This document shows positions 10,474 to 14,876 of a stretch of DNA of 64,000 nucleotides, piece by piece; position 1 is the stretch's first letter; each line of letters starts with the position of its first letter. The stretch is from the NCBI GenBank assembly GCA_031409275.1, contig JANNXA010000024.1:32001-96000 (forward strand), in the 5' to 3' direction. The DNA is from Planctomycetota bacterium. Lineage in GTDB: Bacteria > Planctomycetota > B15-G4 > SIAN01. The notes under the pieces were generated by a model. The model ran no database searches. It saw only the letters and a list, made by a program, of their open reading frames with translations, and was not told where the DNA came from. A program made the position numbers and the translations under genes.

Positions 10474-11745
10474 GTGCCCATCGTGAGAAAAAGCGTCTTC
10501 CTCTTCGCGACCCTCGACACCAAGGGCCATGAGGCGGCCTTCGTGCGCGACGTCCTGCGCCGCCTGCGACTCTCCGTGAAGCTCGTCGACACCGGCTCGC
10601 TCGGCACGCCGACCGTGCGACCCGACGTGAAGCGCGAGGCACTTTTCGCAGCGGCCGGGACGACGCTGGCGGCCGTCGTGGCGCGTGGCGATCGCGGCGA
10701 GGCGGTCAACTTCGCGGCCGCCGGCGCGGCGGAGTTGGCGCGACGCGCCTTCGCGAAAGGTGAGCTGGCAGGAGTGATCGCGCTCGGCGGTTCAGCGGGC
10801 ACGACCATCGGCACGGCCGCGATGCGCACGCTGCCGATCGGAGTGCCGAAGCTGATGGTCAGCACGCTCGCGGGGACACCGCAGGCGGGCGACTACGTGG
10901 GCAGCTCCGACGTGCTCATGATGAACTCGGTGGTCGACGTGCTGGGCATCAACCGCATCAGCGCGACGGTCCTGACGCGCGCAGCGCAGGCGATGGCGGG
11001 CATGGCGCGCGGCAAGTTGCCGAAGGCGTCGAAGCGCGCGAAGCCGCTGGTCGCCGCGTCGATGTTCGGCGTGACGACTCCATGCGTCGAGCGGGCCAAA
11101 GCGCGCCTCGAGGCGGCCGGCTGCGAGGTGCTGGTCTTCCACGCGACCGGCAGCGGCGGCAAGACGCTCGAGCAGCTCGCGCGCGACGGGATGCTGGCGG
11201 GGGTGCTCGACGTGACGACGACCGAACTTGCCGACGAGCTCGTCGGCGGAATGCTCACCGCCGGCAAGTCGCGCCTCACCGCGGCCGGCGAACGCGGGAT
11301 CCCGCAAGTGGTGAGCGTCGGTGCGCTCGACATGGTCAACTTCTTCGCGGCCGAAACCGTCCCCGAGCGCTTCAAGGAGCGCAAGTTCCACCGCCACAAC
11401 GCCAACGTCACGCTGATGCGCACCACGGCCATGGAGAACGCCGAGCTCGGCGTCGAAGTCGGCCGCAAATGCGCCGCGGCAACCGGCCCATGCGCCATCT
11501 TCCTGCCGAAGCTCGGCGTCTCGGCACTCGATCGCGCCGGGCAGCCGTTCGACGATCCAGCCGCTCGCCACGTCCTCTACGACAACATCGAGGCCAACTG
11601 CGGCAGCGTCCCGGTCCACGAGCTCGACTGCCACTTGAACGACCCGGCGTTCGCCGACGCGATGGCCGATCAGCTGTTGGCGTTCATGAAGATGGGCGCG
11701 AAGTCGGCTGCGAAGCGGGCATCGCCTGCTCGACGCCGGCGCTGA
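10474..11745 (+). CDS. UPF0261 / Tm-1-like ATP-binding domain protein
   Basis: ATLDTKGHE, LGGSAGT, LPIGVPKLMVST, SMFGVTTPCV, FHATGSGG, GALDMVNF, HNANVTLMRTT. Confidence 0.92.
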   Translation: MPIVRKSVFLFATLDTKGHEAAFVRDVLRRLRLSVKLVDTGSLGTPTVRPDVKREALFAAAGTTLAAVVARGDRGEAVNFAAAGAAELARRAFAKGELAGVIALGGSAGTTIGTAAMRTLPIGVPKLMVSTLAGTPQAGDYVGSSDVLMMNSVVDVLGINRISATVLTRAAQAMAGMARGKLPKASKRAKPLVAASMFGVTTPCVERAKARLEAAGCEVLVFHATGSGGKTLEQLARDGMLAGVLDVTTTELADELVGGMLTAGKSRLTAAGERGIPQVVSVGALDMVNFFAAETVPERFKERKFHRHNANVTLMRTTAMENAELGVEVGRKCAAATGPCAIFLPKLGVSALDRAGQPFDDPAARHVLYDNIEANCGSVPVHELDCHLNDPAFADAMADQLLAFMKMGAKSAAKRASPARRRR

Positions 11746-11898
11746 CCGCCGCGATCGGAACGGCGCGATCGAGAGCTCGATCACGTTCGTCAGCGAGATC
11801 CCCTTCGACGCGCGCGGGTCGAGTGCGCGGCCGATCGAACGGAGCACCCGCAGCGCGTGGTGGCTCTCCCCCTCCGCCGGATCGGGGGCTCGCGCGGC

Positions 11899-12800
11899 TC
11901 ATCTCCGCTTGATGGGCGCCGGCGCGACGAACCAGTGGTAGCCGTAGACGTCGCTGAACTAGAGGCGCTCGCAACGCTGCGCGATCCAAGCGCGGAATGC
12001 CTCCGCCTCGCGCGGCGCATCGGCGGGCAGGTAACGCTCCATCCGCACTCGAGCGAGGTCGCCGTCGGGCACTTCGTCGGCGAGCGTCCGCTTCAGTGCG
12101 ACGAGGCCGGGCGCATCGCGCTTCTCGCGGAGCAGCCATTCGATCTGCTCGAAGAGCACCGGCTTGCGGTAACTGACCATCGAACTGCCACATCCAGATC
12201 AGCGTGTTGAGGAAGACCTGGCGCGCGCTGTCGGTCATCTGCGTCGGATCGCTGGCGAAGCCCCACATGAACCGGTTGCCGTGGCGGCCCCGCGCGCCCG
12301 AGTTGGGCCCCTTCGAGTTGGTGCCGCTGGAGATCACTTCGGCGTCGGGCGTGTCCTCGAAGCCCAGCGGATCGGAGACGAGGCCGTAGTCGACCGTCTT
12401 GCCGAGCTCGCCCTCCTGCACCTTCCCTGCGGTCAGCGTCGCGGGCAGATCGCGGCCAGCGTGCCAATCGCGGTAGCCCCCGGGCGTGGCCATCTCGGAC
12501 GTTTCGATCTTCGGCGCGAGCGGTGCATGAGGATCGGGTGGTCGAGGCGCATCCCGTGCGCCTCATGGCCGAGGCAGAGTCAGAGCCAATCGAGCTTGGT
12601 GTGGTGCTGCACGCCGCCCGCCATGGCGCCGAGCATCACGATCGGTTTGCGAAACTCGGGCCCGCGCTTGCAGTCGGCCTGGTCGATCGACGGGTTCTGC
12701 GCATCCATCGGGTAGAGGCGCTTGCCATCGCACACCACGACGTCGAACGACGCGGCGGCCGCGACGAGTTGATCGCGCCCGTCGGGGCCGCGGCGGCCCA
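11899..12800 (-). pseudogene. Disrupted gene, probable selenoprotein-family remnant (in-frame TGA, frameshifts, in-frame TAG)
   Basis: The pieces join into one protein: FDVVVCDG...KPIVMLG..KLDWL[TGA 12582-12580]LCLGHEAHGMRLDHPIL, frameshift near 12528, APLAPKIE...GFEDTPDAEVISSG..GRHGNRFMWGF..VFLNTLIWM, frameshift near 12175, RMERYL..WI..RL[TAG 11961-11959]FSDVYGYHWFV, stop at 11899. Confidence 0.7.
12544..12582 (-). promoter_or_regulatory. Candidate bacterial SECIS hairpin 3' of an in-frame UGA
   Basis: Minus strand reads UGA, 15 nt, GAGGCGCA-CGGGA-UGCGCCUC: a perfect 8-bp stem with a G-rich loop. Confidence 0.6.
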
Positions 12801-12815
12801 TGCACCGTTCGGGCA

Positions 12816-12938
12816 CGCGACGCGCAACAGCTCGGGGGCTGCGCGATCGAAGAGCTCGGCGAGCGCGGCGGGCGTGCCAGCGCGGCGGAACTCGACGAAG
12901 AGCGCTTCGAGCGAACGAGGGAGGGTCGGCTTCGACAT
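12816..12938 (-). pseudogene. Truncated N-terminus of an ECF-type sigma factor
   Basis: AGGAGG RBS, then MSKPTLPRSLEALFVEFRRAGTPAALAELFDRAAPELLRVA, which resembles the start of ECF sigma region 2 and breaks off into unrelated sequence. Confidence 0.55.
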
Positions 12939-12976
12939 TTCGCCCCTCCTTGCCGCCAACGCCGTCAGCGTTACAG

Positions 12977-13142
12977 CCGGCGCCAACCTGCCACCTGCCG
13001 CGTCCGGCCGACTCCGGAGGCCGGCGCCAACAAGTCCTCGGCCGACTCCGGAGGCCGGCGCCACCCATCGGCTGTCGCGACTCGCGCCCTCACTCCGGTG
13101 CCGCCGGGCCGCGTCCGGCCGACTCTGGAGGCCGGCGCCACC
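12977..13142. repeat. Cluster of REP-like 24-bp imperfect palindromic repeats
   Basis: GGCCGACTC(C/T)GGAGGCCGGCGCCA at 13006, 13040 and 13117, plus a partial copy at 12977, immediately after the ggt stop. Confidence 0.8.
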
Positions 13143-13145
13143 AGT

Positions 13146-14876
<1,731 letters not shown>

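Follow-up and report, generated by a model that had tools for sequence, protein, structure and literature searches.

Intact members of a protein family represented in our window by a gene relic almost certainly recode an in-frame UGA as selenocysteine (Sec), as judged from the behavior of the codon and of the adjoining hairpin across relatives, and they very likely constitute an uncatalogued selenoprotein family in Planctomycetota. The window, a stretch of 64,000 nucleotides from a Planctomycetota genome (G000), carries a decayed pseudogene of this family that is unable to make a selenoprotein. The initial annotation had interpreted the site as a selenoprotein gene. This interpretation stands for the family, where TGA is replaced by Cys in homologs, the hairpin accompanies TGA and the sel genes are present, and fails for the window copy itself. 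Intact members are probably exported envelope selenol/thiol reductases that would be recharged via DsbD-N-like and TlpA-like partners, with the window gene as a pseudogene of this family.

The UGA site and the decayed window copy

The reading frame around the UGA lies on the minus strand, which the initial annotation had not specified, and reads K-L-D-W-L-[TGA 12582-12580]-L-C-L-G-H-E-A-H-G-M-R-L-D-H-P-I, with protein-like sequence on both sides of the KLDWL-TGA junction as had been described. Coding sequence continues downstream of the UGA for about 18 codons, after which the frame is broken by a 1-nt frameshift that had gone unmentioned. The perfect stem reported to start 15 nt after the UGA, closed by a CGGGA loop, is present at 12564-12544. 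The features of the site and of the surrounding relic, in which the lesions are defined relative to the intact 481-codon gene of a genome from the same genus (G004), are the following:

12580..12582, minus strand: in-frame TGA at the position where the U-x-C motif would have Sec (homologs have Cys here)
12574..12576, minus strand: TGC codon for the other Cys of U-x-C (conserved in 96/102 aligned proteins)
12544..12564, minus strand: SECIS-type hairpin with an 8-bp stem and a CGGGA loop (loop G invariant in TGA forms)
11899..12762, minus strand: family-gene relic (pseudogene) in two blocks, with 86% and 81% DNA identity to the intact G004 gene
12524..12530 (near 12527), minus strand: 1-nt frameshift some 55 nt past the UGA (relative to G004; identical in contigs of runs X1-X3)
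12160..12170 (near 12165), minus strand: breakpoint of an out-of-frame loss of 293 nt that are present in G004 (shared without change by the contigs of runs X1, X2 and X4)
11959..11961, minus strand: premature TAG at a position occupied by a Tyr codon in G004 (compared with G004 and the run contigs)
12819..12938, minus strand: 5'-terminal piece of a gene for an ECF-type sigma factor in place of the relic's 5' end (from the comparison with G004)

The hairpin stem consists of eight perfect base pairs (12564-12557 with 12551-12544), and its loop begins at a distance of 23 nt from the UGA. This geometry agrees with the bacterial SECIS (bSECIS) model as set out in the legend to Fig. 2 of PMC13188914 (loop of 3-9 nt, G within the first two positions of the loop, a distance of 16-37 nt to the UGA, <= -7.5 kcal/mol), which was scored with a purpose-written script and not with bSECISearch. 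Taken alone, the window hairpin is modest to weak evidence for Sec, since the 81-nt hairpin region folds no better than its shuffles (z -0.05) and since 233 of 1500 random TGA sites of the window genome, which has a GC content of 69%, pass the fixed-position test at <= -7.5 kcal/mol (30/1500 at <= -13.5 kcal/mol). It is the comparison with homologs, which have TGA or Cys at the site and the hairpin with TGA, that lifts the window hairpin above chance.

Relative to the G004 gene, the relic is missing approximately the first 85 codons, signal peptide included. This 5' loss, together with the frameshift, the 293-nt deletion and the TAG, contradicts the earlier reading of the window gene as a functional selenoprotein. 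Because the G004 counterpart of the sigma factor gene is located downstream of the family gene, the sigma fragment found at the missing 5' end of the relic suggests a rearrangement. It could be argued that the gene is intact in the cell and that the lesions are assembly errors, considering that the genome assembly comprises 55 contigs and that runs X1-X4 all derive from one study, X1 and X2 possibly being the assembly's own source. However, the run contigs showed no differences or gaps relative to the window across 11700-13026 (X1 and X2), 12249-13026 (X3) and 11700-12267 (X4), and the four kinds of lesion are joined by a Trp-to-Gly replacement at a position where 125 of 136 proteins have Trp. 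The assembly-error reading is therefore largely refuted, and we assign it a negligible probability. The window copy being a pseudogene, its value is that of a marker only. A profile search detected no intact family paralogue in the window genome, the only other trace being a small remnant (G000:C17:9644-9838) that corresponds to the C-terminal end of the family and contains stops. A single-protein scan of the genome contigs returned the query's own locus as the sole match.

The surroundings of the relic include three copies of a ~30-nt GC-rich repeat at 12997-13143, to which this repeat is nearly restricted within the genome, between the relic and the stop of a gamma-glutamyltransferase gene. 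The latter gene (gamma-glutamyltranspeptidase, 13146-14876, minus strand) shares the strand of the relic, is located upstream of it, and is not among the recurring neighbors of the family. On the other side, a UPF0261 gene (10474-11745, plus strand) is convergent with the relic and also flanks intact family genes at three other loci (L014, L019 and L093).

The UGA column, the hairpin and the Sec machinery

A metagenome scan confirmed 414 relatives, the best 80 of which were retained and yielded 79 loci. The addition of seven genome loci, that of the window among them, brought the total to 86 loci, which were reduced to 77 distinct sites after duplicates and fragments missing the site were dropped. 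Across these 77 sites, drawn from the best 80 of the 414 metagenome relatives and from the genomes, the UGA column contained TGA in 45 cases, Cys (TGC or TGT) in 26 and Ser, Ala or Glu in 6; neither Trp nor Arg occurred, and the Cys/TGA alignment is the one that the initial annotation had proposed to look for. Six intact homologues from four related genomes (G004, G005, G008 and G009), one of them from a Planctomycetota of the same order as the window genome, have one in-frame TGA each, at the position U-L/T-C. Further Planctomycetota genome loci were also examined (26 in total), and TGA was found in 25/25 of those that span the site.

The proposal that the hairpin should be conserved in TGA-bearing homologs was also borne out. 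At +23/24, a hairpin whose loop contains G was present at 45/45 TGA sites (44 of them at <= -7.5 kcal/mol), at 0/26 Cys sites and at 1/6 of the others. With the threshold of <= -7.5 kcal/mol applied at the fixed position, the contrast was 44/45 TGA versus 0/26 Cys sites, and an open scan under the bSECIS criteria gave 44/45 versus 2/27. The loop G was found at all TGA sites (45/45) and at 4/26 Cys sites, and at all 45 TGA sites the hairpin exceeded the average stability of 25 synonymous recodings. When the 25 further genome loci with TGA were subjected to the hairpin test, 22 passed, two were weak and one had no hairpin. The scarcity of hairpins at Cys loci may in part reflect their lower GC content (0.48 versus 0.61), which lowers chance folding, a concern that is partly answered by the synonymous control. 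Stem sequence and register differ between clades, with one pair being G-C in 17 sequences and C-G in 15. Covariation within one register gives no clean signal: six of eight pairs change on both sides, but slid controls score about equal because the clades shift the stem register.

A quick, unrooted tree with the site masked placed Sec and Cys forms in an interleaved arrangement (5 changes over 79 rows), and grouped the forms without either Cys as one clade among the Sec forms. In this clade (L020, L022, L023, L024, L025, L030 and L042) the U/C-x-C pair has been lost as a unit while the frames are intact, and L025 retains the hairpin. Since intact members persist without either Cys, the scaffold has some function apart from redox chemistry, and the clade is possibly a non-catalytic binding variant.

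Protein databases provided a further view of the family. A total of 759 clusters at 50% identity match it in the protein library. Among the best 150 of these, 79 contain C-x-C and 62 start downstream of the UGA position, 19 of the latter at the very next codon. Judging from protein starts, these 62 relatives fit the prediction that gene callers would split the gene at the UGA, and the relatives that the initial annotation had described, with Cys at the TGA position and the exact motifs, do exist in databases. No family match was found in plasmids. In L111 (from genome G147) and P0123 (Sec-form/post-UGA), the frame ends at the W-G-F-W of a TlpA-like domain, where there may be a second UGA/Sec.

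The four genes required for Sec insertion that had been proposed as a check were all found in the window genome, namely selA, selB, a TGA-bearing selD and the tRNA-Sec (selC). The selD gene (L004; G000:C40:252211-253134) has its in-frame TGA as part of a U-x-x-K motif; the gene adjoins selA. Among 30 carrier genomes, selA was detected in 29 and selB in 29, and tRNA-Sec was present in 5/5 genomes checked, including both of those missing one sel gene. From a sample of 401 Planctomycetota genomes, 33 matched the family, a few of them weakly, and 295 had selA above the curated cut-off. All 33 fall within the 295 genomes with selA and none within the 106 without it, an association to be read with the non-independence of kin and the high baseline in mind. 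Because selA is so widespread in this sample, the Sec trait appears to be very common across the phylum, and more uncatalogued families may exist. Five metagenome family loci adjoin selB (L046, L047, L048, L053 and L055), their Sec-form genes being convergent with it. Tandem Sec copies also occur, three in L053 and two in L052. Named or clustered Cys forms point to Bacteroidota, for example the cultured Flavivirga.

The many database entries that begin just past the UGA, 19 of the best 150 at the next codon, could also mean that the UGA is a genuine stop within a split two-gene form, all the more as ATG is the next codon in some TGA forms; or else the UGA could be read as Trp or another residue. 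However, one clade excepted, the column is TGA or Cys only and never Trp, and both the hairpin and the loop G track TGA. A stop would moreover break the protein in the middle of a predicted domain and leave the larger half devoid of a signal peptide, carriers are absent from the 106 sampled genomes without selA, and the window genome encodes a CCA tRNA-Trp distinct from its UCA tRNA-Sec. We consider a true stop or a different residue very improbable, and retain Sec as the reading of the UGA in intact members. Two specific candidates were rejected: a lone nonsense mutation, on account of TGA at 45/77 sites and 25/25 further loci and of the hairpin tied to TGA, and decoding as Trp, on account of the same separate tRNAs and a column without Trp.

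Predicted fold and redox partners

Intact relatives are about 420-540 aa long and have predicted signal peptides. A hydrophobic N-terminus was scored in 71/82 full-length proteins versus 4/82 for an internal control, on the basis of hydropathy and not of a signal-peptide predictor. Export of the intact protein is predicted, with high confidence. The AlphaFold2 model of one relative (P0005, with Cys in place of Sec) had a pLDDT of 93.5. Its residues 26-262 resemble the class-I glutamine-amidotransferase/ThuA-like fold, and a helical domain follows. The best structural match was the ThuA-like 4jqs (Z 12.4, rmsd 3.6, 186 aligned residues), tied with 4gud (HisH), 1t0b and 3rht, and Foldseek comparisons of the model with GMP synthase-type domains gave E values from 3e-5 to 1e-2. 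With these E values and Z of 11-12 for the structural matches, the predicted model can be classified as GATase1-like. A ThuA profile comparison based on only four ThuA sequences from the window genome returned a probability of 0.1, and the ThuA-like Atlas score of 0.83-0.88 is taken as a lead only. The C-terminal helical part (model pLDDT 86.7) had no Foldseek match at E 0.001 or better, the best Z being 4.4, an absence that does not establish a new fold.

The positions of the nucleophile elbow and of the catalytic triad were derived from the secondary structure of the model, with no residue-level superposition. No conserved Cys was found at the inferred elbow (columns 105-121), and His-x-Glu is absent from the inferred triad position, where W-G-F-x-x-x-P follows the last strand. 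With no Cys at the elbow and the triad His replaced by W-G-F, U/C127 and C129 are the only conserved sulfur/selenium residues, being kept in 81/86 and 96/102 cases, respectively. The U-x-C motif is placed some 15 residues after the inferred elbow. His135, six residues past the second Cys, is present in 81/104 aligned proteins, and 20/104 have Tyr, Leu or Phe instead. Invariant polar residues are Glu208, Arg226, Lys217 and Asn252.

Many members are proteins of predicted export that combine the Cys pair with DsbD-N or TlpA by fusion or adjacency. An nDsbD-type C-x4/5-C motif was found in 59 of the best 150 relatives, and Pfam searches of 50 hand-picked relatives, enriched in long ones, identified DsbD_N in 26 (18 above the cut-off) and thioredoxin domains in 5. 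The DsbD-N part alone was matched in a sequence search of the PDB. DsbD_N is fused C-terminally in many relatives and N-terminally in two Sec forms (L116 and L117). Over the 79 metagenome loci, DsbD-N was fused or adjacent at 32/35 Cys, 11/37 Sec and 0/7 pair-less loci. TlpA was found at 24/35 Cys loci and at 0/37 metagenomic Sec loci, the contigs of which are often short (>= 4 kb in only 14/37), and SusC/SusD at 13/35 Cys loci. The closest relatives (those of G004, G005 and L009 of G009) are unfused and DsbD-N was not seen beside them; furthermore, DsbD_N was not found in the window genome (93% complete) or in G005 (86% complete). These observations count against an obligate link with DsbD-N. 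The DsbD membrane domain is present in G000, G004, G009 and G345.

Proposed function, alternatives and known systems

In the cycle that we propose for intact members, SelB would bind the hairpin and Sec would be inserted, after which the protein would be exported to the cell envelope. There, U (or C) of the U/C-x-C motif would attack an oxidized envelope substrate, for which a peptide or small molecule in its disulfide or S-oxide form is the most likely candidate. Resolution of the intermediate by the second Cys would give a selenenylsulfide or disulfide. The DsbD-N-like domain, in which C-x4-C is kept, and TlpA-type thioredoxins would then re-reduce the pair, fed by a DsbD-type membrane protein. 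At Bacteroidota-type loci, the substrate would be an import of the adjacent SusC/SusD pair. Fusions and gene neighborhoods make this redox cycle with DsbD-N/TlpA fairly likely, and any particular identity of the reductase substrate is doubtful. Thioredoxin-MsrAB fusions are another arrangement of an envelope reducing pathway. A precedent is the route from the DsbD-class ScsB through TlpA to the periplasmic enzyme PprX, in the account given in PMC3322552.

Two other chemistries for a selenoprotein of this kind have to be weighed. On the one hand, the U/C-x-C motif and the nearby His could bind a soft metal or metalloid (Cu, Hg or As) in the envelope, with DsbD-N/TlpA keeping the ligands reduced. 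The frequency of His135 six residues past the second Cys (81/104) speaks for such a site, one UxC selenoprotein catalogued in Table 1 of PMC13188914 is a Cu/Zn efflux transporter, and the SusC/D neighbors could import a metal complex. Nevertheless, metal-resistance or metal-transport genes are lacking among the annotated recurring neighbors, Tyr, Leu or Phe takes the place of His135 in 20/104 proteins, and a two-domain protein of 430 aa appears large for a chaperone, so that metal binding is unlikely. On the other hand, the protein could be a hydrolase or transferase with a selenol/thiol nucleophile, i.e., an amidotransferase-like peptidase with a relocated nucleophile that acts on imported peptides and whose partners repair the nucleophile once oxidized. 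The superfamily of the fold consists of Cys-nucleophile hydrolases, and both the invariant Glu208, Arg226, Lys217 and Asn252 and the SusC/D genes at 13/35 Cys loci would suit such an enzyme. We consider it rather unlikely, given an inferred elbow without Cys and an inferred triad site without His-x-Glu. In addition, the two Cys/Sec residues are retained or lost jointly, and a redox pair therefore fits better than a single nucleophile, which leaves the envelope reductase as our preferred reading.

The core of the family matched no Pfam or NCBIfam 20.0 model, and the 119-family table of 2026 (PMC13188914 Table 1) lists no matching name, domain or motif. No description of the family emerged from a literature search that stopped short of the BSepDB family table and of two papers in which it could be listed, Haft and Tolstoy 2025 and Deng et al. 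2026 (with candidate selenoproteins from groundwater genomes). Judged by model, the family is a member of no catalogued selenoprotein family. With the UxC selenoproteins of the same Table 1, namely the thioredoxin-like Sec.2 (PF13192) and the SO_0444 Cu/Zn efflux transporter (NF033936), it shares the in-frame UGA, a downstream bSECIS, Cys homologs and the U-x-C spacing, but its core matches neither Pfam nor NCBIfam, its predicted fold is not thioredoxin-like and it is not a membrane transporter. By fold, the nearest catalogued selenoprotein is the GxUxG amidotransferase type, which has a different motif: the CTP synthase C-terminal-related (glutamine amidotransferase) selenoprotein NF004836, as listed by deep-Sep (PMC12013277), likewise has a Sec-bearing class-I amidotransferase-like scaffold. 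Unlike it, our family has U-x-C about 15 residues past the inferred elbow, a predicted signal peptide and DsbD-N/TlpA partners, and does not match the NF004836 model. The ThuA-like/GATase1-like proteins (4jqs, 1t0b and 3rht; PF06283) are the best structural matches (Z 11.6-12.4, tied with true amidotransferases), yet identity is 11-13%, there is no Pfam ThuA match, and the family has the conserved U/C-x-C and an extra helical domain of ~170 aa without a clear structural match. What is shared with DsbD/ScsB, TlpA and PprX, as these are presented in PMC3322552, is the association of an exported enzyme bearing Cys or Sec with domains that resemble DsbD-N and TlpA. In contrast to that system, neither sequence nor fold places the enzyme among the peroxiredoxins or Msr, and its DsbD-N-like domain either stands alone or is joined to the enzyme instead of residing on a membrane carrier.

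With 759 clusters at 50% identity and a presence in 33/401 Planctomycetota genomes, this would be a sizeable addition to the known selenoprotein families. Standard annotation cuts its genes at the UGA and current HMM libraries have no model for it, and the Sec codon marks the likely active site in an otherwise anonymous family of "hypothetical proteins". A wider reading, which we put forward tentatively, is that of a widespread class of envelope selenoenzymes in which an amidotransferase-like fold has been converted into a U-x-C oxidoreductase that has a DsbD-N electron shuttle of its own. In Bacteroidota, gut-metagenome contigs included, the Cys form and TlpA would stand behind SusC/SusD importers and reduce imported sulfur-linked nutrients. 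The DsbD-N/TlpA/SusC-D context offers a direct connection, amenable to testing, of nutrient import in Bacteroidota with the redox supply of the envelope, and since Cys forms are carried by cultured organisms (Flavivirga), functional assays can do without selenium biochemistry. If true, the wider reading would mean a redox chemistry uncatalogued for the amidotransferase-like fold and a reductive step undescribed for SusC/D loci.
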